DNA of 64,000 nt from an uncultured Acidobacteriota bacterium (GTDB taxonomy: Bacteria; Acidobacteriota; Terriglobia; Terriglobales; Acidobacteriaceae), in assembly GCA_963840575.1 (NCBI GenBank), contig CAWIZP010000010.1, forward strand, positions 137,485 through 201,484, in the 5' to 3' direction. Positions within the stretch are counted from its first letter, which is position 1. Every line of letters begins with the position of its first letter. Shown in pieces: positions 1 to 14,782 of this stretch. Both the position numbers and the translations under genes were made by a program. The notes under the pieces were generated by a model. That model searched no databases, was not told the origin of the DNA, and worked only from the letters and a program-made list of their open reading frames with translations.

Positions 1-1002
1 TTATTGGGATGCTGGGGATCGTTCCAAAATCCCAAAGTTTGCGACTACAAGTACGAAACCATGACGGAATGGGGCCGGGCCATGTATGTTACTCCGGGCG
101 TCGTGGTCGATGGCAAGCTCGTCACCACGGATCTCGTCGACATCAATCTCAACATGCGGATTTTGCTCGGTAGTTCCTACTACGATGACTGGAAGAACTC
201 CGAGACCTTTGTGAAGACGGATCCGCTGGGAAATCCAGTCGACAAGAATCACCCATGGAATCAGACCACGATACCTCGTCCGCAAAAGCGCGATTTCGGC
301 GGCAAGTACACTTGGGTCATGTCGCCGCGTTGGCTGGACAAACGGACGGGCGATCATCTCGCCCTCGACACCGGCGGGGGCCCGATTGCCCGGCTCTGGG
401 CAACAGCTCTCGCGGGCATCGTTGACATCGGCTACATCAAGGCCACGGGCCACAGCGTGAAGATGTACCTGCCGAAGACGGCATCCAAGCCCGAGGTTGA
501 ATTCGAATGGAAGATTCCGAAGTGGAGCAACGCCATCGAGCGCGACCGGGCGCGAACCTATTTCCAAGCCTACGCCGCTTCTGCCGCCCTCTACTTCGCC
601 GAGAAAGCACTGGCGGAATTGCACGCCGGGCGGACCAGAACCTGGACGGACTTCAAGGTTCCCGAAGAGGCCATCGGTTGCGGGTTCCACGAAGCAGTTC
701 GGGGTGTGCTCTCCCACCACGTGGTGATTCGCAAGGGCAAAATCGCAAACTACCATCCTTATCCTCCAACGCCTTGGAATGCCAATCCACGGGATATTTA
801 TGGCACTCCGGGACCGTACGAAGACGCAGTGCAGAATACGCCGATCTTTGAAGAGAACGGTCCGGAGAAATTCAAGGGCATCGACATCATGCGAGCCGTG
901 CGCAGCTTCGATCCTTGTTTACCGTGCGGCGTCCACATGTATCTGGGTAACGGCAAGGTGCTGGAGACGCGTCATTCTCCGATGTTTGGCCTTCAGCCCT
1001 GA
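1..1002 (+). CDS. hhyL: [NiFe]-hydrogenase large subunit, C-terminal ~333 codons (5' end upstream of window); probably high-affinity group 1h/5 (Hhy-type)
   Basis: Frame 1 is open from base 1. C-terminal Ni-Fe ligand motif SFDPCLPCGVH is followed by a 21-aa tail (MYLGNGKVLETRHSPMFGLQP) of the kind removed by the maturation protease. A hyp island follows. Confidence 0.9.
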   Translation, partial: LLGCWGSFQNPKVCDYKYETMTEWGRAMYVTPGVVVDGKLVTTDLVDINLNMRILLGSSYYDDWKNSETFVKTDPLGNPVDKNHPWNQTTIPRPQKRDFGGKYTWVMSPRWLDKRTGDHLALDTGGGPIARLWATALAGIVDIGYIKATGHSVKMYLPKTASKPEVEFEWKIPKWSNAIERDRARTYFQAYAASAALYFAEKALAELHAGRTRTWTDFKVPEEAIGCGFHEAVRGVLSHHVVIRKGKIANYHPYPPTPWNANPRDIYGTPGPYEDAVQNTPIFEENGPEKFKGIDIMRAVRSFDPCLPCGVHMYLGNGKVLETRHSPMFGLQP

Positions 1003-1020
1003 ATGCATATTGTGTTCACT

Positions 1021-1079
1021 TAGGAGTGAGGGCGGTGGCTTGCGGCGACTCTCACTCCTACTTTTTCGCTGATTTTTTT
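1021..1079 (+). terminator. stem-loop with T-rich tail just after the large-subunit stop (partial terminator or mRNA stabiliser)
   Basis: Perfect 10-bp inverted repeat TAGGAGTGAG (1021-1030) / CTCACTCCTA (1051-1060) with a 20-nt loop, then CTTTTTCGCTGATTTTTTT. Confidence 0.5.
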
Positions 1080-1128
1080 CATAGCCAAACAAGGTAATCA
1101 GCAAGAATCAATCTGGCGAAGGAGACTT

Positions 1129-1719
1129 GTGGCCGACGGCAAAGATCTTCGAGAAGACATGCAGCGGATCGGAGGATTGGTTCAGGAGATCGAATCCATC
1201 GGCGATCCCGCGGTGCGAGCTGCCGCGAAGAATCTGATGCAATTGCTCATGGATTTGCACGGAGCTGCTCTGGAGAAAACCCTCGACATTGTGGCCGACG
1301 CCGGAGAGCCGGGCATGACCATCATCGACCGACTCGGCCGCGATTCGCTGGTGAGCAGCGTCCTGATTTTGTATGGGCTTCATCCTGAGGATCTCGAAAC
1401 CAGAGTCGTAAAGGCGGTAGATCGCGTGAGGCCGCAACTGCGCAAACAAGGTTGTGAACTGGAGTTGCTCGCCGTGACTGATGGAGCCATTCGACTGCGG
1501 GTTGAAACTGGTTTTCATACCTGCGGTTCAACCGCCAAAACTGTCCAGGCTACGCTGGAAGGCGCGATGTACGACGCGGCGCCCGATCTGACTTCCCTGA
1601 CGATCGAAGGTTTTGAAGATAAGCCTTCATCCGGATTTGTGGCTTTAGACAAATTAATGGGAAACGCCGGACAATTCATCTCCTCGCCAGTTGCGTTAGA
1701 GCCGCAAGGCGGCGACTAG
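1129..1719 (+). CDS. NifU/Nfu C-terminal-domain-like hydrogenase accessory protein
   Basis: GTG start 5 nt after AAGGAG. The segment VRPQLRKQGCELELLAVTDGAIRLRVETGFHTCGSTAKTVQATLE resembles the Nfu domain, but the CxxC reads HTCGST. Located directly after hhyL. Confidence 0.65.
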   Translation: MADGKDLREDMQRIGGLVQEIESIGDPAVRAAAKNLMQLLMDLHGAALEKTLDIVADAGEPGMTIIDRLGRDSLVSSVLILYGLHPEDLETRVVKAVDRVRPQLRKQGCELELLAVTDGAIRLRVETGFHTCGSTAKTVQATLEGAMYDAAPDLTSLTIEGFEDKPSSGFVALDKLMGNAGQFISSPVALEPQGGD

Positions 1720-1749
1720 GAACGATCGAACACTTTGGGATTCTGAATT

Positions 1750-2424
1750 ATGAGTGCCGGGCAATTTACGGGATCTACCGATGGATTCGGAGCGCTTCGC
1801 CAGTTCGCACGGCGCGAGCGGCAGCTCGAACGTTGCGAGTTGTGCAGTCTGGGTCTGCGGTCTGATCACCCGCATTTGCTCGAATTGGCGCAGCGCAAGC
1901 TCATATGCACCTGTGAACCTTGTGCGATTCTATTCAGCGGCCAGGGCGTGAAGTTCAAGCGAGTGCCTCGGCGAGTTTTATCTCTTCCCCGCTTCAACCT
2001 CAGCGATGCAGAGTGGAACGGTCTGATGGTCCCAATCAACATGGCTTTCTTTTTCAGGAACAGCCTCGAGGAACGTACGGTTGCGATGTATCCCAGCCCC
2101 GCTGGCGCGACCGAATCCCTGTTGGATATGGAGTCCTGGAATGATATCGCCCAGCGCAACTTGGTGCTAAGCACAATGGAATCGGATGTAGAAGCGTTGT
2201 TGGTCAACCGTCTCGGATACTCCCGCGGATATTCCGCGCCGGAGTACTATCTGCTGCCGATCGATGAATGTTACAAACTCGTCGGGCTGATTCGGATGCA
2301 TTGGAAAGGCCTCTCCGGAGGAACGGAAGTGTGGCGGGAATTGGGCGAGTTCTTTACCGGCTTGAAAGCGAAATCAGTGGAGATCAAAGAGGAAGCCAGC
2401 GCTCGAGAGAAATCTGATGCCTGA
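1750..2424 (+). CDS. hydrogenase-cluster conserved protein of unknown function (Cys-rich N-terminus; DUF5947-like from memory, unverified)
   Basis: 224-aa ORF with CELCSL...CTCEPC cysteine pairs. Its 3' end overlaps the next gene by 8 nt (ATGCCTGA at 2417-2424). Confidence 0.6.
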   Translation: MSAGQFTGSTDGFGALRQFARRERQLERCELCSLGLRSDHPHLLELAQRKLICTCEPCAILFSGQGVKFKRVPRRVLSLPRFNLSDAEWNGLMVPINMAFFFRNSLEERTVAMYPSPAGATESLLDMESWNDIAQRNLVLSTMESDVEALLVNRLGYSRGYSAPEYYLLPIDECYKLVGLIRMHWKGLSGGTEVWRELGEFFTGLKAKSVEIKEEASAREKSDA

Positions 2425-3079
2425 TTTGAGCTTCCAGGTCGAGGCAGTCGAGGTAGTGGCCAATGCAGCCTCTCCGCTGCTGGCCTTCAAACTGCGCCTG
2501 ACTGACGCCAACACTCAGCAGATCATTCATACTGTGGCACTCCGCTGCCAGCTCCAGTTGGAAGTAACGCGCCGTAAATACACACTCCAAGACCAGGAAC
2601 GGTTGCTCGATCTGTTTGGCGAGCCCAGCCGCTGGGGCCAAACTTTGCGCAGTCTTTTGTGGGCCCATGCCAATCTCGTAGTTCCTTCATTCACCGGGAC
2701 GACTGTAGTCGATCTTCCCGTTCCCTGCACCTTCGACTTCAACGTGGCTGCTACGAAATACTTCGATGGTCTGACTGATGGTGATGTCCCCATCTGCCTG
2801 CAATTCAGCGGAACAGTTTTCTACGCGAACCCGGACACGCACCTGCAGGTTGCTCCGATTTCCTGGGACAAGGAAGCGCGCTTCAAACTTCCGGTAAAAG
2901 TTTGGCGCGACATGATGGAGTCGTACTATCCCAACAGCGCATGGCTCTGCCTGCACAAGGACACTTTTAACCGCTTATATCAGTACAAACTTCGGCACGG
3001 CATTCCCACGTGGGAAGAAGTGATCGAGCGCGTCGTGCCGGTGCAAGTTGATCCAGTCGAGGAGACGGTGACGCAATGA
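2417..3079 (+). CDS. hydrogenase-cluster conserved protein of unknown function (DUF6084-like from memory, unverified)
   Basis: 220-aa ORF, coupled to the upstream gene (ATGCCTGA) and to the downstream gene (ATGA at 3076-3079). Confidence 0.6.
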   Translation: MPDLSFQVEAVEVVANAASPLLAFKLRLTDANTQQIIHTVALRCQLQLEVTRRKYTLQDQERLLDLFGEPSRWGQTLRSLLWAHANLVVPSFTGTTVVDLPVPCTFDFNVAATKYFDGLTDGDVPICLQFSGTVFYANPDTHLQVAPISWDKEARFKLPVKVWRDMMESYYPNSAWLCLHKDTFNRLYQYKLRHGIPTWEEVIERVVPVQVDPVEETVTQ

Positions 3080-4140
3080 ATCTTGCGACCGTGGAGAAGA
3101 TCGCGAAAGCCGTGTTGTACGAGGGATATATGCTTTATCCCTACCGACCTTCGTCGGTGAAGAATCAGCAGCGCTGGAATTTCGGCGTACTCTGCCCGCG
3201 ATCCTACAGCGAGATGCAAAACGGTAGCGAAGCTTGGACGATGCAGACCGAGTGTCTGCTTGAGGCCAACTCGCTGACCGGGATTGAAGTCCGGGTCCGA
3301 TTTCTGCAACTGGTGGCGCGAACTATCGGCGAATTAAAGACGCCAGTAGCCGAACTGTTACAGGGTGAAACACCAGACTTTCAACGAGTAGAGAAGCTCT
3401 CGGTGAATGGTCGCGCCTACGAGCCGTGGCAGGAAGCAGTCGAGCGGGAAGTCGTGCTGCCAGTTTTGAATATTGAAGCGCTGCGCCATACCGGGTTAAA
3501 GCGACCCTTTATTTTTCTTGAGGGAAAAGAGTTTGAGCCCCTGCGCGAGTCCGGCGGAGGGATTGTGGGCGTTCTTGTTCGGGAACGAAACAACCTCCAG
3601 GGTGAAGTGGAGCTTACCGCGACCCGGCTCGACGATGGCATCTTCAAAATAGGCGTGCACATTCGGAACACAACTCCTTTTGAAGTCTCGGATAATACCG
3701 GTCGCGAAAGTGCGTTGTTGAACGCCCTCGTATCGACCCATACTATCCTCGGCGTTCAGGATGGCCGCTTCGTTTCTTCACTGGCTCCCGCTGATGAAAT
3801 GAAAGAATTTGTTGGAAGCTGCAAGAATGTTGGAACGTGGCCGGTTCTCGTTGGCGAAGAAGGCGATCGCGATACGTTGCTCTCTTCGCCGATCATCCTC
3901 TACGACTATCCGCAAATCGCTCCCGAGAGCGCTGGTGACCTCTTCGACGGCACCGAAATTGACGAGATTCTCTCCTTGCGAATCATGACGCTCACGGATG
4001 AAGAAAAACGCGAGATGAGCCAGTCGGACGAGCGCGCCCGTCAGATGTTGGAGCGCACTGAGGCTATGCCGGTCGAACATCTCATGAAGTTGCACGGAGT
4101 CTTGCGAGGGCTGCGTCCCCTGAGGGAGGAGATCCGATGA
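3076..4140 (+). CDS. hydrogenase-cluster conserved hypothetical protein
   Basis: 354-aa ORF with ATGA overlaps at both ends (3076 and 4137). No catalytic motif recognised. Confidence 0.6.
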   Translation: MNLATVEKIAKAVLYEGYMLYPYRPSSVKNQQRWNFGVLCPRSYSEMQNGSEAWTMQTECLLEANSLTGIEVRVRFLQLVARTIGELKTPVAELLQGETPDFQRVEKLSVNGRAYEPWQEAVEREVVLPVLNIEALRHTGLKRPFIFLEGKEFEPLRESGGGIVGVLVRERNNLQGEVELTATRLDDGIFKIGVHIRNTTPFEVSDNTGRESALLNALVSTHTILGVQDGRFVSSLAPADEMKEFVGSCKNVGTWPVLVGEEGDRDTLLSSPIILYDYPQIAPESAGDLFDGTEIDEILSLRIMTLTDEEKREMSQSDERARQMLERTEAMPVEHLMKLHGVLRGLRPLREEIR

Positions 4141-4988
4141 ACGAATGGGAATGGCAACTGGTCGAAGAAAAAACTCCCGTCGATCATCTGGAAATCTGTG
4201 GAGTCGAAGTGAGAACCGGAAGCCGGGTGCGCCTGCGCCCCCGTCCGGGAGGCGATGTGATGGACATCGCGCTGGCGGGACAGACCGCAACTATCGAATG
4301 CATTGAACAGGACTATGAAGGCAAGCAGCACGTTTGCGTGGTCCTGGATAACGATCCCGGAAAAGATCTTGGTCTTCTGCGCCAGCCAGGCCACCGCTTC
4401 TTCTTCGACGCCGAGGAAGTCGAGCCGCTATCTGGCGCCGAGATTGCAGAAATCTCAGCCCTGCCAAAGAAGACCATCCTCGTAGCTGGCATCGGCAACA
4501 TTTTTCTCGGCGATGATGCGTTTGGTGTGGAAGTGGTGCGCCGTTTAGCCGAACGAAAATTGCCGGATGCCGTGCGTGTGGCCGATTTTGGCATCCGCGG
4601 CTTCGATCTAGCTTATGCCCTGCAGGATGGCTACGAAACTACAATCCTGGTGGATGCATGTCCGCATGGCGAAGCACCGGGAACTCTTTATGTGATCGAA
4701 CCCGATTTGAAATCATTGGATAGTCCGGAAGCTCCGCCTGCCGTCATAGAAGCTCATGCGATGAATCCCGAAAGCGTGCTGCGCATGGCGCACGCGATGA
4801 ATATTGAAGTTAAGAATGTACTGCTCGTCGGTTGCGAACCGGAAACGCTTGGCGGTGAAGAGGGTCGGATGGGACTTAGCTCGCCGGTTCAGACGGCGGT
4901 GGCAGAAGCTGTGAAGCTGGTAGAGTCATTGATCCAAAAAGTGATGGGCAAGAGCGCGCCCGATTCAACTCCACATTCAACCCAGTGA
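4137..4988 (+). CDS. hydrogenase maturation endopeptidase (HupD/HyaD family) with ~110-aa N-terminal extension
   Basis: Core motif KKTILVAGIGNIFLGDDAFGVEVVRRL, then FGIRGFDLAYAL and VDAC. Preceded in the same ORF by an unrelated ~110-aa segment. Confidence 0.85.
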   Translation: MNEWEWQLVEEKTPVDHLEICGVEVRTGSRVRLRPRPGGDVMDIALAGQTATIECIEQDYEGKQHVCVVLDNDPGKDLGLLRQPGHRFFFDAEEVEPLSGAEIAEISALPKKTILVAGIGNIFLGDDAFGVEVVRRLAERKLPDAVRVADFGIRGFDLAYALQDGYETTILVDACPHGEAPGTLYVIEPDLKSLDSPEAPPAVIEAHAMNPESVLRMAHAMNIEVKNVLLVGCEPETLGGEEGRMGLSSPVQTAVAEAVKLVESLIQKVMGKSAPDSTPHSTQ

Positions 4989-5024
4989 ATATCTTGCGTT
5001 AGTTGCGTTAATAAGGAGACTGCC

Positions 5025-5228
5025 GTGGCAATCGAAAAGAATGGTAACGGACTTAGTGATAGGGACACGCTATTCATGTTGAGCGGCGTGGCGCTAATAG
5101 TGTTCGGGGCGGGATTAATTCTTTCCAATCCAATCGCGAAACGATATCTCAGCCAGATCGGGATCGGCGATTTGGCTCAGGCTGCATTGCCGGACTTAGA
5201 TCGCTATTTGAAACTGCGGGCGATGTAA
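5025..5228 (+). CDS. small membrane protein (67 aa) ending AALPDLDRYLKLRAM
   Basis: GTG start 7 nt after AAGGAG. One hydrophobic helix (LFMLSGVALIVFGAGLILS). The stop lies 2 nt before the next ATG. Confidence 0.6.
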   Translation: MAIEKNGNGLSDRDTLFMLSGVALIVFGAGLILSNPIAKRYLSQIGIGDLAQAALPDLDRYLKLRAM

Positions 5229-5230
5229 CG

Positions 5231-5851
5231 ATGAGCCCGCCCGTGCACATGGCAGAGAGTCAGGGGGATGGCTTGTCCACAGTAGGAATGCCGCACACGA
5301 CAGTTCGCTACATAATCGATGGCAAGAACAGCAGGTTCACAGTGCAGGCATTCGCTACGGGGCTGCTTTCGACATTCGCTCATAACCCGACCATTGCGAT
5401 TCGTGATTTCGAAGGCGAGATCTGTTTCAGTCCCGAGGCTGTGGAGCACAGTTGGTTGCACTTGATGATCCATTCGGCTTCGCTTACCGTCACCGACGAC
5501 GTTCGCGAGAAGGATCGGGCCGAGATCAATCGCGCGATGCAAGAACAAGTTCTGGAATCAGATTCGTTCCCCGAGATTCTTTACGAATCCTCCGGCCTGT
5601 CTGCGAATAAGATCGGAGAAGGACAATACTGGGGAACGATGAACGGCGAACTCGCGCTGCACGGAGTTACACGGAGTCAGCCAGTCTCCGTGCGCATCGC
5701 AGCCAACGAAGACGTACTCCGCGCAACGGGTGATTTTTCGGTGCGCCAGAGCGACTATGAAATTCGTCCGGTCACCGCGGTTGGCGGAACGATCAAGCTT
5801 AAGGATGAACTCAAGTTTTCGTTCGATATCTCCGCCCGCAGGCAGACGTGA
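5231..5851 (+). CDS. YceI-like polyisoprenoid-binding family protein
   Basis: SRFTVQAFATGLLSTFAHNP...SDSFPEILYES...GELALHGVTRSQPVSVRI...DYEIRP matches the YceI domain pattern. The true start may be an internal Met. Confidence 0.8.
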   Translation: MSPPVHMAESQGDGLSTVGMPHTTVRYIIDGKNSRFTVQAFATGLLSTFAHNPTIAIRDFEGEICFSPEAVEHSWLHLMIHSASLTVTDDVREKDRAEINRAMQEQVLESDSFPEILYESSGLSANKIGEGQYWGTMNGELALHGVTRSQPVSVRIAANEDVLRATGDFSVRQSDYEIRPVTAVGGTIKLKDELKFSFDISARRQT

Positions 5852-5916
5852 ACCGGCCGTACAGTTTTTTGAAGATGGATGACAGAGCAAATCATGACGT
5901 TGCCGAGGGATGCCAC

Positions 5917-6237
5917 ATGTGTCTAGCCATACCAGGGAAGATTGTTGAGATTTCCCATGAGAATAGGGATTCCGCGCTTGTCGAAGTAATCGGCGTGCGC
6001 CGCCGAATTGACCTCGGCCTGCTACACGACGATAAGCCAGTGGAAGGTGATTGGGTGCTGGTTCACGTCGGTTTCGCCATGAGTAAGATCAGCGAACAGG
6101 ATGCCAATGACCAGATGAACACTCTCAGAATGCTGGGAGAGATTGACGGAGCAATGCAGGAAGTCAAAGGATACGGATTGGAAGATGATGTCGAAATTGC
6201 TGGTTCCGATTCTAAGTACAAGGAACCGATCCAATGA
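5917..6237 (+). CDS. hypC: hydrogenase assembly chaperone HypC/HupF
   Basis: Canonical N-terminus MCLAIPGKIVEI at the ATG at 5917 (the track ORF begins upstream at 5848). ATGA overlap with hypD. Confidence 0.9.
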   Translation: MCLAIPGKIVEISHENRDSALVEVIGVRRRIDLGLLHDDKPVEGDWVLVHVGFAMSKISEQDANDQMNTLRMLGEIDGAMQEVKGYGLEDDVEIAGSDSKYKEPIQ

Positions 6238-7361
6238 GATTTGTCGATGAGTTCCGGCAACCCGAGCTGATTTCGAAAACCGCGGAGGAAATTCGTCGCC
6301 TGGCTCGCACTGGACGGCATTACCGCATGATGGAAGTCTGCGGTGGACATACTCACGCTATCTATCGTTTCGGACTGAAAGATATCCTTCCCGAAAATAT
6401 CGAATTGATTCACGGACCCGGTTGCCCTGTATGCGTGCTTCCGATGGGAAGAATCGACGACGGCCTCGCCATCGCCCACGAGCCGGATGTTATCTTCGCC
6501 GCCTTTGGCGATATGATGCGTGTTCCGGGTACTCAAGGCAGTCCGCTCGAGCACAAGGCGCGAGGCATGGACGTTCGCATCGTATATTCACCCTCCGATG
6601 CGTTAAAGTTGGCCCGGCTTAATCCCGAGAAGCACGTGTTGTTTTTCGCCATCGGATTCGAAACCACCGCGCCCTCCACGGCGCTCACGATGATGCGCGC
6701 CAAGGCCGAACACATCCGCAACTTCTCGGTCTTCTGCAACCACGTCACAATCATTCCCGCGATCCGCGCGATTCTGGATTCTCCCGACATGCGACTGGAC
6801 GCCTTTATCGGCCCCGGCCACGTTTCCACCGTCATCGGTTGCCGGCCTTATGAATGGATCGCGCAAAACGAACGCAAACCGATCGTCGTTTCCGGTTTCG
6901 AGCCCCTGGATATGCTGCAATCCATTGTTATGTTGTTGCGCCAGTTGAAAGCCGGTGAGGCCAAGGTTGAAAATCAATACAAGCGCGTTGTTCCCTGGGA
7001 GGGCAACCGGGCTGCGCTTCGCGCCATGGCTGAGGTTTTTGAGTTGCGCCCGTACTTCGAGTGGCGCGGTCTGGGCTTCATCTCCCAATCGGCACTTCGC
7101 ATCAACAACCAGTATGCCGAGTTCGATGCCGAACAGCGCTTCCAAGTGCCTGGCATTCGAGTGACCGATCCTAAAGCCGCGCAATGCGGAGAGGTGTTGA
7201 AGGGCGTGCTGAAACCGCATCAATGTAAACTTTTTGGACGCGAGTGCACGCCCGAGCATCCTATTGGCGCACTCATGGTATCGACGGAAGGATCATGCGC
7301 CGCGTATCACAGCTACGAGCACCGCAAGGCAGCAATGGTAAGTCTGAGCTCGATCGCCTGA
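6234..7361 (+). CDS. hypD: hydrogenase formation protein HypD
   Basis: MRFVDEFR N-terminus, with GPGCPVCV, GFETTAP and GPGHVS motifs. Confidence 0.95.
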   Translation: MRFVDEFRQPELISKTAEEIRRLARTGRHYRMMEVCGGHTHAIYRFGLKDILPENIELIHGPGCPVCVLPMGRIDDGLAIAHEPDVIFAAFGDMMRVPGTQGSPLEHKARGMDVRIVYSPSDALKLARLNPEKHVLFFAIGFETTAPSTALTMMRAKAEHIRNFSVFCNHVTIIPAIRAILDSPDMRLDAFIGPGHVSTVIGCRPYEWIAQNERKPIVVSGFEPLDMLQSIVMLLRQLKAGEAKVENQYKRVVPWEGNRAALRAMAEVFELRPYFEWRGLGFISQSALRINNQYAEFDAEQRFQVPGIRVTDPKAAQCGEVLKGVLKPHQCKLFGRECTPEHPIGALMVSTEGSCAAYHSYEHRKAAMVSLSSIA

Positions 7362-8416
7362 GCGCTCCGGCTGCCACGCTTGCCGCTTCGGCACCCGTCC
7401 GCTTCCGCGATCTGCAAATCGAGATGGCTCACGGAGCCGGAGGCAAAGCCAGCCGCAAGTTAGTCGAAGGCCTCTTTGCTCCTCTTCTTTTTGGTGCCGC
7501 ACCCGGCCCACTGAGCGACGCCGCGCACGTCGATATCAACGGAACCATCGTGGCAATCACTACTGATAGTTTTGTAGTTAAGCCTTTGAGTTTTCCGGGC
7601 GGGTCAATCGGCGAGCTTGCGGTGAACGGGACCGTGAATGACCTGGCGGTCTCGGGAGCAAAAGCGGAAGCTCTGGTAGTCACCTTTGTGCTGGAGGCCG
7701 GCTTACCCACTACAACCCTCGAAGCCGAAGTTCGCGCCATGGCGAAGGCGGCGCGGGACGCGGATGTCCGCATCGCCGCTGGCGATACCAAAGTGGTCGA
7801 ACACGGCAAAGCGGATCAGATGTATGTGACCACCACCGGCATCGGCCGTTTGATTCCTGGCGTGACTATCGATCCGCGCTCGGTGCGTGTTGGCGATAAG
7901 ATTCTGCTCTCGGGTCCCATCGGTGATCATGGCGTCACCATCTTGCTGGCGCGCGGTGAACTCGATCTCGAGGCCGACCTCCGTTCCGATACGCGATCCG
8001 TTTTTCCCTTGGTCGAAGCTCTCGTGAAGGCGGCCGGTCCTGGTATTCGTTGGATGCGCGATCCAACTCGAGGCGGCGCGGCTACGTCTCTCAACGAATT
8101 GGCACGCGACTGCGGGCTCGGAATGGTTCTTTTCGAGGATCAGATTCCGGTGCGAGATACGGTGCGCGGCGCCTGCGAGTTGCTCGGGCTCGATCCACTG
8201 CACATTGCCAATGAGGGACAGTTCCTCGCCATTGTTTCCCCCGAGTACGCCGATGCGGCGATCAATGCATTAAGTTTGGCGCCGGGCGGAAGCGAAGCGC
8301 AGGTGATCGGCGAGGTGCGCGAACAACCGGTCGGCACAGTACTCGTGACAACCCTGTACGGGGGCAGCCGAATCGTAGATATGCTCGTCGGCGACCCCTT
8401 GCCGCGAATTTGTTAG
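7295..8416 (+). CDS. hypE: hydrogenase expression/formation protein HypE (start uncertain: ATG 7295 or 7424)
   Basis: AHGAGGK near the N-terminus, an AIR-synthase-like body, and the C-terminal PRIC motif. Confidence 0.92.
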   Translation: MRRVSQLRAPQGSNGKSELDRLSAPAATLAASAPVRFRDLQIEMAHGAGGKASRKLVEGLFAPLLFGAAPGPLSDAAHVDINGTIVAITTDSFVVKPLSFPGGSIGELAVNGTVNDLAVSGAKAEALVVTFVLEAGLPTTTLEAEVRAMAKAARDADVRIAAGDTKVVEHGKADQMYVTTTGIGRLIPGVTIDPRSVRVGDKILLSGPIGDHGVTILLARGELDLEADLRSDTRSVFPLVEALVKAAGPGIRWMRDPTRGGAATSLNELARDCGLGMVLFEDQIPVRDTVRGACELLGLDPLHIANEGQFLAIVSPEYADAAINALSLAPGGSEAQVIGEVREQPVGTVLVTTLYGGSRIVDMLVGDPLPRIC

Positions 8417-8431
8417 ATCGCGATCTGACGA

Positions 8432-9667
8432 ATGAAGATGAAGATTAACGCCTCATATCCAAGCAGGACCTCCTCAGATCCGACCTCGGCGACTTGCAAT
8501 CTCGCAAGCCGTATCGAAGAGCGGCTGCTCGAGCGGAACCAATTATTCGAGCGCTTTTTCTCTCGCGAGGCGCCGCGACTGGCCGAGGCCTGCCGTGAGA
8601 TGTCTGAGCGTTTCCTGCGCGGCGGCCGCCTGCTCGCCTTCGGTCGCGGTCCTTATGCCACCGATGCGCAACACGTTTCCGTGGAGTTTGTGCATCCGGT
8701 AATCGTGGGCAAACGCGCTCTGCCGGCCCTCGATCTTTCCGTTCTCTTTCGACCGTGGCTCGAAGCGATCCTTCATCCCGAAGACATCGTGGTGGGATTC
8801 AGCCCGCCAGAAGGCGATCCTGAAGTCTGGGCGACTCTCCAGGAAGCGCACCTGAAAGACGCGATGACGTTCGCTTTGCCGGGTCTCGAAGGTTCTTACG
8901 CGGTTGGGGCAGCCACGCAAGATCCGTTCATGCATCAGGAAATGATCGAGATCCTGTATCACACTCTATGGGAAACAGTGCACGTGTTCTTCGAGCACCG
9001 CGAATTAGGCCATAATGTCGGCGCCTCTGGCTTTCTCTATCCATTTCTGGGAACGGAAAAACAGGGTACTGAGGACATTGCAGCCGAGGTTGCCGCTTCC
9101 ATCTTAATGAAGGCGCAAGATGATGCCAGGCTGCGCGCGCAAGTCGCGGGGGAAAAGGCGGAGCAAATCGCTAATAGTGCTCTTGCGATTCATGAACGCC
9201 TGCGCCGCGGCGGCAAACTCATAATCTTCGGCAATGGAGGCTCCGGTACCGATGCGAACGACTTTGCTATTGACTGCGTGCTTCCGCCGCCCGGGTATGA
9301 ATCCGTTCCGGCCGTATCGCTATCGCTCGAACCCGCGAACATTACAGCCGTCGCCAACGATATTGGTACCGACGCCATTTTCCTTCGTCAGTTGATCGCG
9401 CAAGCTCGTCCTGAAGATGTTGCCATTGGCATCTCTACCAGCGGAGGGTCGCGCAACATCATTGCGGCGCTCGAGGAAGCTAGCAAGCGCAGTCTGCTCA
9501 CTGTCGCGCTGCTGGGCTATGATGGTGGCGAGATCAAGCGCAAGCAACTCGCGGATTTTCCCATCGTTGTGAACTGCGACTATATCCCCCGTATTCAGGA
9601 GGTCCAGGCCTCCATCTACCACGTCATGCGCGAAGCGCTGGAGGTGCTGGCGCGTGGGCAAGCTTGA
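8432..9667 (+). CDS. tandem SIS-domain protein (two GmhA/phosphoheptose-isomerase-like halves)
   Basis: First half has LLAFGRGPYATDAQHVSVEF. Second half has LIIFGNGGSGTDANDFAIDC...ANDIG...GISTSGGSRNIIAALEEA. Both fit the SIS/GmhA pattern. Confidence 0.75.
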   Translation: MKMKINASYPSRTSSDPTSATCNLASRIEERLLERNQLFERFFSREAPRLAEACREMSERFLRGGRLLAFGRGPYATDAQHVSVEFVHPVIVGKRALPALDLSVLFRPWLEAILHPEDIVVGFSPPEGDPEVWATLQEAHLKDAMTFALPGLEGSYAVGAATQDPFMHQEMIEILYHTLWETVHVFFEHRELGHNVGASGFLYPFLGTEKQGTEDIAAEVAASILMKAQDDARLRAQVAGEKAEQIANSALAIHERLRRGGKLIIFGNGGSGTDANDFAIDCVLPPPGYESVPAVSLSLEPANITAVANDIGTDAIFLRQLIAQARPEDVAIGISTSGGSRNIIAALEEASKRSLLTVALLGYDGGEIKRKQLADFPIVVNCDYIPRIQEVQASIYHVMREALEVLARGQA

Positions 9668-9887
9668 ACTCTTTGGCACCGCCAGGTGTCCCCACACGGG
9701 CGAAATGCGCGACTGGCTGGAGTGGAAGCGTAGCGAGTTTGTCGAATATGACGTAGAAGCCGATCCCACGGCCCGCAGGCGCATGCGCGAAATCTCTGGC
9801 GGCCAGCGCACCGTGCCCATCCTGGTCGAGGACGGCAAGGTGATCCAAGTCGGTTGGCAGGGTCACGGTTGCCTGGTGGACGAGTAA
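9654..9887 (+). CDS. glutaredoxin/thioredoxin-fold small protein (CPHT active-site position)
   Basis: GTG start overlaps the SIS gene by 14 nt. LELFGTARCPHTGEMRDWL...RTVPILVEDGKV is a Grx-like layout. A second Cys lies near the C-terminus (GHGCLVDE). Confidence 0.7.
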   Translation: MGKLELFGTARCPHTGEMRDWLEWKRSEFVEYDVEADPTARRRMREISGGQRTVPILVEDGKVIQVGWQGHGCLVDE

Positions 9888-9934
9888 GCCACGTGGGCAC
9901 TGCCGTGATCGGCTTTGCCGGTACCCCGATAATC

Positions 9935-12250
9935 ATGGCCAGTGCCTGCTCCATTCGCGTTCGCGGCGTAGTACAAGGAGTGGGATTCCGTCCTTTCGTC
10001 TATCGCCTCGCCGCTGCACACAATCTGTCTGGATGGGTACTGAACGGCGAACAGGGAGTCGATATCCATCTCGAAGGCGCAAAGAGCGGGCTCGAAGCTT
10101 TTGTGCGTGATCTAAAAACGCAGCCTCCGCCTGCGGCTAAGATTGCGGAAATCGAGGTTTACACGGTCGAGCCGATCGGACTAACCGAATTCACAATTCG
10201 CAAAAGCAAGCATGGGAAACACCCCACGGTTCGCATCTCACCCGATTTGCCGGTATGCGATGATTGCCTGAAAGAACTCTTCGATCCAGCCGATGCACGC
10301 TATCAGTATCCCTACATCAACTGCACAAACTGCGGGCCGCGTTACAGCGTGATGCTGGACCTTCCTTACGACAGGCCGAACACCACCATGAAGCGGTGGC
10401 CGCTCGATGCCTTTTGCGAAAATGAATACGGCGACCCCGCCAACCGTCGCTTTCACGCGCAGCCGGTGGCGTGTCCGGTTTGCGGGCCAAATTATTATCT
10501 TCATCCGAAGAATGAAACTTCAGTCGGAACCGACGACAGTATCCGCCGTGCGGCTGAAATTCTTCAATTCGGCGGAATTCTCGCGGTGAAGGGACTCGGT
10601 GGCTATCATTTGGCTTGCGATGCGCGAAATCCCTTGTCGGTTGCGACTTTGCGAGATCGCAAATACCGCAAAGAAAAACCTTTCGCCTTGATGGCAAAAG
10701 ACATCAGTGTTGCACGAACCCTGGTGGATTTGTCATTGGACGCTGAGGCCCTTTTCACTTCTGTCGCTCGGCCCATAGTGCTGGCTCCGGCGAAAGTAGA
10801 ACTTCCGGAGGTCTCCCCGGATAACGGCGAACTCGGTGTGATGTTGCCTTACACGCCGTTGCAGCATCTGCTATTTGCAGCTGGAGCGCCCGATGTTCTC
10901 GTCATGACCAGCGCGAATCGTTCGAGTGAGCCGATCGCCTACGAAGACGACGATGCGTTACGGCGTCTCGCCGGAGTAGCGGACTCATTTCTGATCGGTC
11001 AGCGTTCGATCGCCCGGCGAGTGGACGACTCTGTAGTCCGCGCTGGAAGCTTCGGTCCGGTAATCCTTCGCCGTGCGCGCGGCTACGCGCCGGCAGCGGT
11101 TACGTCACTTCCGGTCAAGCATCCCATTCTCGCGCTGGGCGCGGATTTGAAAAATACGATTACGCTGGTAGTCGACGGCCAGGCCTTTGTCAGCCAGCAC
11201 ATCGGCGACCTGGATCACTACGAATCTCTGCGCGCCTTTCATGAGACCATTGACGATTTGGTTTCAATGTATGAAGTGAATTGGGATGATTTGCTTTTGG
11301 TGCATGATCTTCATCCGGAGTATCGCTCAACTGCCCACTCGGCGACGCGCCGCGCTGCGCAAACCGAAGCGGTGCAGCATCACCGCGCGCACGTGGCATC
11401 TGTGCTCGCTGAGCGCAGAGAGTGGACAAAGAAAGTTATCGGCGTAAGCTTCGACGGCACCGGATATGGAGACGACCGCTCGATCTGGGGCGGCGAAATC
11501 TTTGTTGGCAATCTTGAGGACGGTTTCGCACGCGCCGCACACCTGCGTCCCGCGGCGCTCGCGGGAGGCGACGCAGCGGCGCGCTATCCGGTGCAGGCAG
11601 CCGCTGGCTTTCTCATTCAAGTGGATGGCTTACCAGACGTGCTTGAGGCTCCCTTCAGTTTTCCAGAGCGGTACCGAAACGCGACGGAGCTGGTTCGGAA
11701 AGAGGTGCGCACGTTTGCCACGACCTCGATGGGGCGTCTCTTCGACGCTGCTGCCGCTTTGCTCGGATTCACGCGCGAGGCCACATTTGAGGGGCAGGCG
11801 GCCATGTGGTTGGAGCAACTCGCCCGCTGCGAGCCCGATGCCAAGGCATATTCCTTCCCCTTCATCGACAACCAGCTCGACTTTCGTCCGCTGCTGCAAT
11901 CGGTTGTTCTTGAGCGCGCACGTGGACGGAAAATCAGCGCAATAGCGCGCTCCTTTCAACGGGGGATCGCTGAGGGGTTGCGCGATGCTTTAACCGTTAT
12001 CTGTAGCAGCCAACAATTGGATACGATAGTTCTCTCTGGAGGAGTTTTTCAGAATGAATTACTCCTCGAAGATCTGCAATCTCTGCTGGCTGCGGAATCC
12101 CTGCAGGTCTGGACGAATCATGAAGTTCCCCCGAACGATGGAGGGATCAGCCTGGGACAGGCAGCCCTCGCGGCGTTCGGGCGCTTCGATCGGGATCTTG
12201 AAAATGGGCAGCACTCCCTCGAACCTGCGAGCGAGGTAACTCATGCATGA
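9935..12250 (+). CDS. hypF: carbamoyltransferase HypF
   Basis: Acylphosphatase-like IRVRGVVQGVGFRPFVYRLA, zinc-finger CDDC...CTNCGPRYS and CPVCGP, and the YrdC-like VKGLGGYHLACDA. The track ORF starts at 9854; ATG 9935 fits the domain start. Confidence 0.95.
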   Translation: MASACSIRVRGVVQGVGFRPFVYRLAAAHNLSGWVLNGEQGVDIHLEGAKSGLEAFVRDLKTQPPPAAKIAEIEVYTVEPIGLTEFTIRKSKHGKHPTVRISPDLPVCDDCLKELFDPADARYQYPYINCTNCGPRYSVMLDLPYDRPNTTMKRWPLDAFCENEYGDPANRRFHAQPVACPVCGPNYYLHPKNETSVGTDDSIRRAAEILQFGGILAVKGLGGYHLACDARNPLSVATLRDRKYRKEKPFALMAKDISVARTLVDLSLDAEALFTSVARPIVLAPAKVELPEVSPDNGELGVMLPYTPLQHLLFAAGAPDVLVMTSANRSSEPIAYEDDDALRRLAGVADSFLIGQRSIARRVDDSVVRAGSFGPVILRRARGYAPAAVTSLPVKHPILALGADLKNTITLVVDGQAFVSQHIGDLDHYESLRAFHETIDDLVSMYEVNWDDLLLVHDLHPEYRSTAHSATRRAAQTEAVQHHRAHVASVLAERREWTKKVIGVSFDGTGYGDDRSIWGGEIFVGNLEDGFARAAHLRPAALAGGDAAARYPVQAAAGFLIQVDGLPDVLEAPFSFPERYRNATELVRKEVRTFATTSMGRLFDAAAALLGFTREATFEGQAAMWLEQLARCEPDAKAYSFPFIDNQLDFRPLLQSVVLERARGRKISAIARSFQRGIAEGLRDALTVICSSQQLDTIVLSGGVFQNELLLEDLQSLLAAESLQVWTNHEVPPNDGGISLGQAALAAFGRFDRDLENGQHSLEPASEVTHA

Positions 12251-12605
12251 ACTTTCGATTGCAATGAGCATCGTGGAACTGGCAGAGGAAGAGGCCGCGC
12301 GCCGCGGCGTTCAAGTTGAAGCTGTGCACCTTAGACTCGGAGCCTTATCCGGCGTCGTGAAAGATGCATTGCTTTCCTGTTATGAAATGGTCTGTGAGGG
12401 CACGCCATTGGAGGGTTCGCGGCTGATTGTCGAAGATGTCGCCGTCGTAATTTTTTGCGTGACCTGTAAAGCACAGCGCCGGCTCAACTCATTGCAGTTA
12501 TTTTGCTGCCCGGAGTGTGGAACCCCTTCGGCCGAAGTGGTGCAAGGCAAGGAACTCGAAGTGGTTGCATTGGAGATAAAGGAATGCGCACCGAACCCCG
12601 TTTGA
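12243..12605 (+). CDS. hypA: hydrogenase nickel incorporation protein HypA
   Basis: MHELSIAMSIVE N-terminus and CVTC...CPEC zinc site. ATGCATGA overlap with hypF. Confidence 0.93.
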   Translation: MHELSIAMSIVELAEEEAARRGVQVEAVHLRLGALSGVVKDALLSCYEMVCEGTPLEGSRLIVEDVAVVIFCVTCKAQRRLNSLQLFCCPECGTPSAEVVQGKELEVVALEIKECAPNPV

Positions 12606-13267
12606 TTGAAGTTCGAAAAAACGTTCTGAAGCAGAATGACGCTATCGCCCGCGCACTGCGCGAGCGTTTCCACGCCGCTGGAGTTTTTGTGGTGAGTCTC
12701 GTCTCCAGCCCGGGCTCGGGGAAAACCGCATTTCTTGAGAAGACTCTCACTCTTCTTCGTCCAAACTATCGGGTAGCTGCGCTCGTGGGTGATCTTGCTA
12801 CCGAGAATGATGCGCAGCGTTTAGCGCGCAGCCAGGCTCCGGTCAGGCAAATCACCACCGGCACTCTCTGCCACCTCGAGGCTGCCATGGTCCAAACTGC
12901 GCTCGAAGGCTGGGACTTAAGTCAGTTGGATTTTCTCTTCGTCGAAAATGTGGGGAATCTGGTTTGTCCTTCGTCATATGACTTGGGCGAGGATCTTCGT
13001 CTCGTACTTATTTCGGTTACCGAGGGTGAGGACAAGCCGCTCAAGTATCCAACTATTTTCAATAGCGCCGACGTGGCAATCGTCAGCAAGATGGACTTGG
13101 CCGCCGCAGTTGAATTCAATTGGGAAACCGCATACAACAATATCCAGGCTGTGCGCCCGGGGATGAAGGTCTTTCAGCTTTCAGCAAAGACCGGAGAGGG
13201 AATGCAAACGTATTTGGGGTTTCTTGCAGCGCGACTAGCGGAGTTGCGCCAACCTGTCACCATTTAG
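12584..13267 (+). CDS. hypB: hydrogenase nickel incorporation GTPase HypB
   Basis: ATG 12584 is preceded by GGAGATAAAGGA. Walker A SSPGSGKTAF and the ENVGNLVCP motif are present. Confidence 0.93.
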   Translation: MRTEPRLIEVRKNVLKQNDAIARALRERFHAAGVFVVSLVSSPGSGKTAFLEKTLTLLRPNYRVAALVGDLATENDAQRLARSQAPVRQITTGTLCHLEAAMVQTALEGWDLSQLDFLFVENVGNLVCPSSYDLGEDLRLVLISVTEGEDKPLKYPTIFNSADVAIVSKMDLAAAVEFNWETAYNNIQAVRPGMKVFQLSAKTGEGMQTYLGFLAARLAELRQPVTI

Positions 13268-13292
13268 CTAGTTAATATCGCGCGCCTGGTAA

Positions 13293-14111
13293 ATGATCAG
13301 TTTTGTCTCCATCCTCGCGGTCGGATTTTTCCTTGGGATGCGCCACGCCACCGATCCCGATCATGTCATCGCGGTCACAACTATCGTCAGCAATCAGCGG
13401 AGCACTGTGGGGTCGGCTCTGATCGGCGCTTTCTGGGGATTGGGCCACACGGTCACTATTCTGGTCGTAGGCGCCGGAATTATTCTCTTCAATCTCGTGA
13501 TCCCGGTGAAGCTCGGTTTGAGCATGGAATTGTCCGTCGCCGGGATGCTGATCATCCTCGGGCTCATGAACATTGCCGGATTTCTGCATACCATGGCTGA
13601 ATCAATGCCGACCGAATCACTGGCGAGCGGCGGAGAAAAGTTCATCCACGCCCATCCTCATAGTCACGGCGACTACACGCATAATCATTCGCACGTTCAT
13701 CGGCATGAGGGTCACTCTCACTCAATCGATTCCCCGTCGTTGGGATGGATGGATCGCGCATTTGGTAGAACCGGGATGTATCAATACTTTCGGCCCCTGG
13801 TGGTGGGGATTGTTCATGGCCTCGCCGGCTCGGCGGCTGTGGCTTTGCTGGTCTTGAGCACAATCCGAAACGTTCACTGGGCGGTTGCGTATTTGCTGGT
13901 ATTCGGCGTGGGCACGATAGCGGGGATGATGCTAATCACCATGAGCATCGCTTCCGCATTCACAATGGTAGGCAAAGGTCGGAAGAAATTTTCCCGCCGG
14001 CTGGCATTAGCTTCGGGATTGCTTAGTCTTGGTTTCGGTATTTTCGTCGCTTACCAGATCTGCTTCGTGAACGGACTCTTCACTACGCATGCGCAATGGA
14101 TTCCGCATTAG
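13293..14111 (+). CDS. nickel/cobalt permease (NiCoT/UreH-like) with His-rich loop
   Basis: Signature RHATDPDHVIAV (HxxxxDH) and GLGHT. Multi-TM profile. Loop is HAHPHSHGDYTHNHSHVHRHEGHSHS. Directly follows hypB. Confidence 0.8.
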   Translation: MISFVSILAVGFFLGMRHATDPDHVIAVTTIVSNQRSTVGSALIGAFWGLGHTVTILVVGAGIILFNLVIPVKLGLSMELSVAGMLIILGLMNIAGFLHTMAESMPTESLASGGEKFIHAHPHSHGDYTHNHSHVHRHEGHSHSIDSPSLGWMDRAFGRTGMYQYFRPLVVGIVHGLAGSAAVALLVLSTIRNVHWAVAYLLVFGVGTIAGMMLITMSIASAFTMVGKGRKKFSRRLALASGLLSLGFGIFVAYQICFVNGLFTTHAQWIPH

Positions 14112-14782
14112 ACGGCGATAGGAAGCCGCCGCTTCGTTGTGTTCCGTGCTCGAAGCTTCCCTTGAGGTCGAGCACCCCCGAGTATCAATTCGCACAGATG
14201 GTCGACAAAGTCCGCTGTCAGATTGTCATGCCGAATTAGAAACCGCATGTAAATCGGCCCGTACAATGAATCGAGAATCAAATCCATGTCCACGTCTTCG
14301 GGCAGTTCGCCTCGCCGAATCCCACGTTGAAGCGTGGCGTAAGCCTCTCTGCGTCTTGGCCAAAGGAAACGCTCGCGGAAAGCTGCGATCAGATTTCTAT
14401 CGCTCTGCCCGCCACCCAGCAGCGCAGAAACGATGCGCCCACGGCTGCTCCGAAACACTTTAACGAGTTGACGCATCTGTTGGCTCATGTCCGTGGAGAC
14501 CGAACCCGTGTCGGGGAAGTGCAATTTCCGCGTGGTGCTGCTAGCGAAAGCATCCGCGATGAGGGCGGCCTTGTCGGGCCACCAGCGGTAAACCGTCGCC
14601 TTGCCCACATTGGCCTGGGCTGCGACCTCCTGAATGGTCAGATGGGCAAAACCATTCTTGCCCAGAAGCTTCAATGCGCTGCGCAAGATTGCCTGGCGAG
14701 ACTCTTCACTGCGCGGCCGCCCCGGAGAGCGTGCTCTGGTGACCCCGCCGTGACTACCATTGCCATTGGGCAGGTGGCGCAT
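14108..14782 (-). CDS. TetR/AcrR family transcriptional regulator
   Basis: HTH segment ILRSALKLLGKNGFAHLTIQEVAAQANVGKATVYRWWPDKAALI. Divergent from the RND pump. Confidence 0.9.
   Translation of the reverse strand: MRHLPNGNGSHGGVTRARSPGRPRSEESRQAILRSALKLLGKNGFAHLTIQEVAAQANVGKATVYRWWPDKAALIADAFASSTTRKLHFPDTGSVSTDMSQQMRQLVKVFRSSRGRIVSALLGGGQSDRNLIAAFRERFLWPRRREAYATLQRGIRRGELPEDVDMDLILDSLYGPIYMRFLIRHDNLTADFVDHLCELILGGARPQGKLRARNTTKRRLPIAV

Follow-up and report, generated by a model that had tools for sequence, protein, structure and literature searches.

How the group 1h [NiFe]-hydrogenases, which are a main biological sink of atmospheric H2 and aid the survival of dormant soil bacteria, are built in air and joined to the respiratory chain is not settled, and what most conspicuously lacks an explanation in each group 1h locus is a set of four accessory genes. 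What these four genes do is the question raised by the locus described here, which lies in a stretch of 64,000 nucleotides (the window) from an uncultured Acidobacteriota bacterium (contig CAWIZP010000010.1, positions 137,485 to 201,484). In the window, four open reading frames (ORF1 to ORF4) stand between hhyL, the large-subunit gene, and the gene of a HupD-type maturation protease, and the protease carries an N-terminal extension of about 100-110 residues without a Pfam match (domain X). Our answer, to which we give a probability of roughly 55%, is that ORF1 to ORF4 and domain X constitute a soluble assembly or maturation module, dedicated to the cytosolic and oxygen-exposed group 1h hydrogenase, that acts together with the protease. 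The features on which this answer depends are the following:

4-1002, + strand: 3' part of hhyL, large subunit of a group 1h [NiFe]-hydrogenase (PF00374; match to HofG of 5AA5)
1021-1080, + strand: terminator- or attenuator-like hairpin (1021-1060) followed by a U-rich tract (RNA folding)
1129-1719, + strand: ORF1, short form of the HhyE/PHG066 type, NifU-like (PF01106; alignment to the Nfu domain of 1XHJ; motif census of 81 loci)
1750-2424, + strand: ORF2, DUF5947/PHG067 type (PF19372, E 6.5e-68)
2417-3079, + strand: ORF3, DUF6084/PHG068 type (PF19562, E 1.3e-87)
3076-4140, + strand: ORF4, PHG069 type, matching the N-terminal 350 residues of PHG069 (homology to pHG1)
4137-4988, + strand: protease ORF, domain X plus HupD core, overlapping ORF4
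4137-4439, + strand: domain X, the N-terminus of the protease (blastp to ORF4 C-termini; layout census of 86 loci)
4476-4988, + strand: HupD-type maturation endopeptidase core (PF01750; TIGR00072, E 5e-34, residues 115-265)

A preliminary description of this DNA had placed four co-directional ORFs between the large-subunit gene and the protease, and its + strand coordinates were all reproduced. These are real genes and not chance ORFs, since ORF1, ORF2 and ORF3 match PF01106 (29.8 bits, cut-off 27), PF19372 (228 bits, cut-off 25) and PF19562 (293 bits, cut-off 25), respectively, and for ORF4, which is without a match in Pfam or NCBIfam, 3663 cluster representatives were obtained at E<=1e-3. 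The protease core scores 117 bits against TIGR00072 (cut-off 47, residues 115-265). Over its C-terminal 311 residues, moreover, the large subunit is similar to HofG, from the actinobacterial-type hydrogenase of Ralstonia/Cupriavidus (PDB 5AA5; E 8.8e-201), and judged by its sequence this subunit is a member of group 1h. The crystal chain of 5AA5 ends at ...DPCLPCGVH, and the HhyL of the window runs 21 residues further (MYLG...GLQP), an extension that is the expected substrate of the protease.

Linkage to hydrogenase was assessed from the relatives of ORF4, for which a profile search with one genome per species returned at least 582 loci, the best 80 being kept; genomic context covers ORF4 relatives of at least about 37% identity, those at E 1e-10 to 1e-3 being left out. 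A group 1h-type large-subunit gene was present in all 75 genome loci with enough upstream flank (51-98% identity to the HhyL of the window, median 88%) and in five of five plasmid loci. The hydrogenase linkage proposed in the preliminary description therefore held: among the relatives covered, every locus with sufficient flank belongs to group 1h, and no homologue was found off a group 1h locus, let alone as often as next to the hydrogenase. The order hhyL-ORF1-ORF2-ORF3-ORF4-X-hupD was kept in all loci but one of verrucomicrobial origin (L074), which holds the complete set rearranged. Genome loci came from Acidobacteriota, Planctomycetota, Chloroflexota, Verrucomicrobiota, and Pseudomonadota, and plasmids added Actinomycetota, for a total of six phyla; the same order was seen on plasmids of Cupriavidus, Methylocystis, Mycobacterium, Streptomyces, and Kitasatospora. 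Among 72,556 plasmids, ORF4 and ORF2 matched the same 13 records, once each, and ORF3 matched 11 of them. On a Streptantibioticus cattleyicolor plasmid (NC_016113.1, 562690-568624), DUF5947 and ORF4 matches stand 4.4 kb apart with no DUF6084 match, and the set may be rearranged or degenerate there. The nearest species-level relatives among the matches listed were uncultured Terriglobia (Acidobacteriota), with 78% identity in ORF4. Furthermore, ORF1 to ORF4 diverge like the maturation proteins HupD, HypC, and HypF (median identity 46-62%), unlike HhyL (median 88%).

If the set is tied to the hydrogenase, gene fusions may point to the partners with which its members work. In 86 loci, domain X was found on HupD in 45, free-standing in 28, on the C-terminus of ORF4 in 11, and in one as part of an ORF4-X-HupD fusion. 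By blastp, the domain was also detected at the C-terminus of 44 of 150 ORF4 cluster representatives, and one actinobacterial-looking representative of 655 residues is the triple fusion. This ORF4-X-HupD fusion occurs as a single ORF in L074 and in P0198; the former (10001-11884) encodes 628 residues, and its large-subunit and NifU-like genes lie downstream of the set, not upstream. ORF1 and ORF2 are likewise joined in a single ORF in two loci, L003 (8027-9322, 431 residues) and L062 (1073-2293, 406 residues). The fusion in L062 has a clean Ser/Gly/Asn-rich linker; that in L003 reads through the former intergenic spacer and is possibly a sequencing artefact. A HypC-like nature of domain X was considered and discarded, as hhalign (85 X against 70 HypC sequences) gave a probability of 1.9%. 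The fusions of domain X and of ORF1 with ORF2, together with an invariant Cys6His2 set in ORF2 and an eroded CxxC in ORF1, are among the new comparative points of this study.

What, then, could the individual proteins contribute? ORF1 can be aligned over residues 92-155 with the Nfu domain of 1XHJ (E 5.5e-6). In this alignment, the position of the Nfu CxxC reads F129-H-T-C132, the first Cys being replaced by Phe, and the former GGD loop reads QGC, with an extra Cys109 (KQGC); the preliminary description, which had proposed an Nfu-like domain with an altered CxxC and a new Cys, is borne out in this respect. Across 81 loci, a canonical CxxC was found in 24, including all long forms with CxxC, and the first Cys was missing in 57. 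In the clade of the window x-H-x-C replaces CxxC, 19 loci, the window among them, carry a Cys at the position of Cys109, and the homologues of Cupriavidus, Paraburkholderia, and Caballeronia have no Cys at these Nfu positions, the Burkholderiales lacking both Cys of the CxxC. At the level of sequence, the variant motif is thus a feature of clades and not a singular oddity, and we infer that the Nfu CxxC would be dispensable in many lineages. Indeed, conservation is concentrated in an N-terminal helical domain of about 90 residues, where the LYGLHP motif is invariant and D72, L84, H85, P86, and R92 vary little or not at all (81 loci). ORF1, which ends at residue 196, is without the 2xCxxC domain found at the C-terminus of mycobacterial HhyE. 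Long HhyE forms, of 290-309 residues, occur in 10 of 81 loci, Mycobacterium among them; their C-terminal domain is Rieske-fold-like, and its two CxxC motifs read CPGC...CxxC. Truncated HhyE forms have been described before (PMC6883350).

In ORF2, the two Cys pairs noted earlier (CELC and CTCEPC) are present and belong to a larger pattern. Eight residues, C29, C32, H40, H42, C53, C55, C58, and C174, are the same in 83 of 83 loci; the six Cys among them are the only ones in ORF2, and the arrangement is CxxC-x7-HxH-x10-CxCxxC plus the distant C174; this Cys6His2 set is a putative set of metal ligands. For the N-terminal 77 residues, Pfam returned DUF5947 alone even at E<=10, and a ferredoxin- or Rieske-type domain was not found. 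The best PDB profile match of this Cys-rich N-terminus, the hypothetical protein TA0938 (2FQH), had an E value of 0.22 and was treated as noise. The idea that the C-terminal domain of long HhyE became detached and is now DUF5947 was rejected, because loci with long HhyE keep a separate DUF5947 gene.

Such a ligand set raises the possibility of an electron relay, in which ORF1 and/or ORF2 would be iron-sulfur (Fe-S) proteins that take electrons from the distal cluster of HhyS to the quinone pool, with ORF3 and ORF4 as docking subunits. The invariance of the six Cys and two His in all 83 loci suits this reading, as do the lack of a cytochrome b subunit in group 1h loci and the Rieske-fold-like domain of long HhyE. 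HhyE is also essential and was reported to co-localise on native gels with the structural subunits HhyS and HhyL, and the authors of that study favoured an electron relay, leaving a role in assembly open (PMC6883350). They likened MSMEG_2717 to PHG067, for which the role of electron acceptor has been put forward, a proposal of Schafer 2013 that is taken here as cited in that paper (PMC6883350). In addition, PHG066 and PHG067 were among the most highly expressed genes of C. necator under inducing conditions (PMC4377017). However, ORF1 of the window has neither the CxxC nor the C-terminal Cys domain, the corresponding positions of PHG066 are without Cys, membrane segments are absent from all four proteins, the only Pfam match of ORF2 is DUF5947, and the fusions join the maturation protease rather than the small subunit. 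Consequently, and with the genetic evidence given below, we regard an electron relay as unlikely, although it deserves to be kept in mind.

The two remaining proteins are rich in beta-structure, and, in agreement with the preliminary description, which had seen no motif linked to chemistry in them, no cofactor motif was found and the models are of a binding type. The AlphaFold2 model of ORF3 (predicted local distance difference test [pLDDT] 80, predicted template modelling score [pTM] 0.73) is a beta-sandwich with helical inserts. This protein has one invariant Cys (C104), and Foldseek matched it to generic Ig-like, LEA-2, ApaG, ASF1, and arrestin-type sandwiches only, with template modelling (TM) scores of about 0.3; the predicted fold is more in keeping with a binding module than with an enzyme or redox protein. 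The model of ORF4 (pLDDT 78.5, pTM 0.77) has a confident beta-rich core at residues 40-270 followed by C-terminal helices. Its most conserved stretches (14-37 and 272-297) fall mostly in segments with pLDDT below 50 (19-34 and 275-293), which we read as likely partner-binding segments. The top Foldseek match of ORF4, DrmA (7S9V, E 3e-5), was rejected at TM scores of 0.27/0.09 and a root-mean-square deviation of 20 A, and the next, aerolysin and herpesvirus gB, share generic long beta-sheets and were not accepted as the fold. When ORF2, ORF3, and ORF4 were compared by sequence and by profile with all PDB chains, 5AA5 included, no significant relative emerged, and the three are not paralogues, as no homology among them was seen in profile-profile comparison.

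All four proteins are acidic and soluble, without a transmembrane segment, and neither an amphipathic nor a hydrophobic anchor was found in them. This bears on a further alternative, that the set would be a structural scaffold or a membrane or quinone tether of the holoenzyme, with a role like that of HucM in group 2a. The long beta-sheets and C-terminal helical region predicted for ORF4 and the tight translational coupling could accommodate it, and Hhy of M. smegmatis is membrane-associated without obvious anchors; yet the same enzyme is of low molecular weight on native gels (bioRxiv 10.1101/769216). Given also that the four proteins lack an anchor, that relatives of ORF2 to ORF4 are absent from solved structures, and that the DUF6893 and YceI-like proteins encoded downstream are better tether candidates in the clade of the window, this is the least probable of the readings considered, and we give it very little credence.

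Gene arrangement offers another kind of evidence. The junctions have exactly the sequences given in the preliminary description, with an 8-nucleotide (nt) overlap between ORF2 and ORF3 at 2417 (ATGCCTGA) and 4-nt ATGA overlaps between ORF3 and ORF4 (3076) and between ORF4 and hupD (4137); ORF1 starts with GTG, with GGAG 7 nt upstream. The ORF2/ORF3 overlap is -8 nt in 70 of 82 loci, owing to a conserved Met-Pro-Asp start of ORF3, and the ORF3/ORF4 overlap is -4 or -1 nt in 63 of 84. Since yceI/hypC (GTGA) and hypC/hypD (ATGA) overlap likewise in the window, coupling is a property of the whole operon and not peculiar to ORF1 to ORF4. Between hhyL and ORF1, the window has a spacer of 126 nt with a hairpin inside (-33.3 kcal/mol, z -3.78), and none of 200 shuffled sequences folded as stably. 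A terminator pattern scan missed this hairpin because of its long loop, and it was found by folding. The stem arms and T-run are kept in three related loci (L001, L008, and L009) while the loop varies, and most Acidobacteriota loci contain a structured spacer; at this junction, a spacer is missing from proteobacterial and actinobacterial loci. A stoichiometric complex with the structural subunits, which the overlaps had suggested, is not supported, because the hairpin parts hhyL from ORF1 and relatives of ORF2 to ORF4 are absent from solved structures.

Among the four homologues, genetics is available for HhyE only, in M. smegmatis, where Hhy activity is abolished when hhyE is deleted and nitroblue tetrazolium (NBT), an artificial acceptor, cannot make up for the loss (PMC6883350). 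HucE, a homologue of HhyE, is essential for hydrogenase activity as well (PMC6883350), and purified active Huc consists of HucS, HucL, and HucM only and reduces menaquinone directly (PMC10017518). Both results speak against the electron relay, given that NBT does not rescue the mutant and that Huc reduces menaquinone without HucE. The former also bears on a role after assembly, namely protection or repair in air, by which the set would re-insert or repair the Fe-S clusters of HhyS or reactivate the Ni-Fe site. In favour of such a role are the restriction of the set to a hydrogenase that is O2-insensitive and made aerobically and the presence in it of an Nfu-like domain and a Cys/His-rich protein, and other aerobic hydrogenases are cited in the hhyE study as using extra factors, e.g., rubredoxin, for aerobic maturation (PMC6883350). 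The loss of hhyE, however, leaves zero activity and not unstable activity (PMC6883350), and the endopeptidase fusion points to a step before cleavage, so that we consider protection or repair distinctly improbable.

Taken together, the maturation module is favoured for several reasons: the strict linkage to group 1h with fusions that join the endopeptidase with ORF4 and X, and ORF1 with ORF2; the invariant ligands of ORF2 and the loss of Nfu ligands in many lineages, Cupriavidus included; the absence of membrane segments, the beta-rich ORF3 and ORF4 without cofactor motif, the accessory-like divergence, and the hairpin after hhyL; the failure of NBT to rescue the hhyE deletion (PMC6883350); a HucE that is essential yet absent from purified Huc (PMC6883350; PMC10017518); and the lack of PDB chains related to ORF2 to ORF4. 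In such a module, the proteins would act before or at the cleavage of the C-terminal extension of HhyL by HupD and would not be part of the finished enzyme. The Cys6His2 set of ORF2 would carry one metal or Fe-S centre, or two, making this protein a scaffold or donor, and ORF1 would work with ORF2, mainly through the invariant N-terminal domain. ORF3 and ORF4 may be holdases or adaptors that bind the immature subunit, and domain X may link them to the endopeptidase, recruiting or licensing HupD. Translational coupling would keep the partner proteins proportionate, and the hairpin after hhyL probably holds the accessory proteins at a level below that of the structural subunits.

Several points weigh against this proposal. 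The binding of the module to HhyL, HhyS, or HupD is predicted; fusions of overlapping neighbours arise easily and show a shared pathway, not a specific step; and the Cys/His set of ORF2 suits a redox Fe-S protein equally well. The AlphaFold2 models come from alignments of limited diversity (53-98% identity), and their Foldseek matches are generic. The published proposal of PHG067 as an electron acceptor (Schafer 2013, as cited in PMC6883350) and the co-localisation of HhyE with HhyS and HhyL on native gels count here too, as does the co-transcription of hhyE with the structural genes in M. smegmatis (PMC6883350). Moreover, a purely catalytic low-abundance factor fits poorly with the high expression of PHG066 and PHG067 (PMC4377017). 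We hold only tentatively, as a possibility short of even odds, a more specific form of the maturation reading, in which the five families would be a machine specific to air-breathing group 1h hydrogenases that couples metal insertion to proteolytic licensing in oxygen: the Cys6His2 scaffold would pre-assemble or hand over a metal centre, and the two beta-rich holdases would present the subunit to a protease that bears domain X or is recruited by it. In practical terms, ORF1 to ORF4 are probably needed for the heterologous production of oxygen-insensitive group 1h catalysts.

Positions 1-14,111 of the + strand of the window form a single co-directional hydrogenase locus, in the order hhyL 3' part, ORF1, ORF2, ORF3, ORF4, X-HupD protease, DUF6893, and YceI-like protein, followed by hypC, hypD, hypE, a double SIS-domain protein, hypF, hypA, hypB, and a NicO-like transporter. 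The DUF6893 protein (5025-5228, 67 residues, one predicted transmembrane helix) lies 3' of hupD and occurs in 51 of 80 related loci; the YceI-like protein (5231-5851), of a polyisoprenoid/quinone-binding family, occurs in 57 of 80, and through either of them the hydrogenase might be linked to the membrane or to quinone. Between hypE and hypF, a protein of 411 residues (8432-9667) has a SIS (GmhA-like) domain at residues 233-372 and is about twice as long as single-domain SIS proteins; a single-domain SIS gene lies between hypC and hypD in Cupriavidus group 1h and in one Bradyrhizobium group 2a locus. The hypA gene was located at 12243-12563 (tblastn with Streptomyces HypA, E 2e-12), and as it overlaps hypB when the latter is taken to start at the mechanically assigned TTG (12503), hypB probably begins further downstream. 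The cluster ends with a weak NicO-like nickel transporter candidate below the Pfam threshold (13293-14111), next to a convergent TetR-family regulator on the - strand (14108-14782) and then an AcrB-type efflux pump gene. An Rfam scan of the whole window gave zero matches.

Accessory proteins of this general kind have precedents. HoxL, HoxO, HoxQ, HoxR, HoxT, and HoxV of C. necator, HyaE and HyaF of E. coli, and HupF and HupK of Rhizobium are enzyme-specific chaperones or scaffolds needed for the assembly, in oxygen, of O2-tolerant membrane-bound [NiFe]-hydrogenases, and their genes sit between the structural genes and the hyp genes. The likeness of ORF1 to ORF4 to proteins of the HoxL/HyaE/HupF type is by analogy only; in Pfam and NCBIfam searches, ORF1 to ORF4 and domain X gave no HyaE, HupH, rubredoxin, or HypC-type matches. 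Group 1h enzymes are cytosolic and not known to be exported by the twin-arginine translocation (Tat) pathway, so that a Tat-proofreading role is inapplicable. Nfu-type carriers (PF01106; PDB 1XHJ and 2Z51) share their domain with residues 92-155 of ORF1, which differs from them in having F-H-T-C for CxxC and the extra N-terminal domain of about 90 residues with LYGLHP.

A closer comparison is that with the group 2a (Huc-type) hydrogenases, whose HucE has an N-terminal domain and a NifU-like domain homologous to ORF1/HhyE and carries a Rieske-type C-terminal domain that ORF1 does not have. In group 2a loci, e.g., those on a Thermus plasmid (L086, 8983-10928) and a Bradyrhizobium plasmid (L087, 7713-9784), the HucE gene follows the protease gene beside an NHL-repeat gene, and no homologues of DUF5947, DUF6084, or ORF4 are present. 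A tetratricopeptide repeat (TPR) protein or other hypotheticals occupy the place of DUF5947, DUF6084, and ORF4 in these two loci. Since group 2a loci are without relatives of these three, only the ORF1 family is common to both kinds of high-affinity hydrogenase.

The preliminary description had presented the four genes as an unexplained conserved block. This stands as far as mechanism is concerned, the homologous genes having been published as "of unknown function" (PMC4377017; PMC5900883); the set itself, however, is already in the literature. A survey of acidobacterial genomes reported hhyE and three highly conserved group 1h-specific hypotheticals, "yet their function remains unknown" (PMC5900883), and a search of the later literature found no paper assigning a mechanism. 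The window thus holds no new kind of system, and the comparative results sharpen the question to HhyL processing and the metal of DUF5947. The closest known systems are PHG066-PHG069 on the megaplasmid pHG1 of C. necator H16 and MSMEG_2718-2715 of M. smegmatis, which stand in the same order between the large-subunit gene and hupD, with junctions that overlap as in the window. Annotations on pHG1 (NifU family, DUF5947, DUF6084, and hypothetical protein) match the families of the window, and the identities of ORF1 to ORF4 to the pHG1 proteins are 31, 44, 53, and 46%, respectively; for ORF4, the tblastn match (46% identity, 97% of the query, E 3e-92) lands on the hypothetical protein between DUF6084 and the protease. 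The differences are of three kinds. Domain X is on ORF4 in Cupriavidus, Mycobacterium, and Streptomyces and on HupD in the window; in ORF1 of the window one Cys is kept beside a His and a further Cys is gained, whereas PHG066 is without Cys at these positions and mycobacterial HhyE has the CxxC and the 2xCxxC domain; and hhyL and ORF1 abut or overlap in pHG1 and M. smegmatis, whereas the window has the 126-nt hairpin spacer. With these variations, the set of the window is a further and typical instance of the published conserved accessory set of group 1h hydrogenases.

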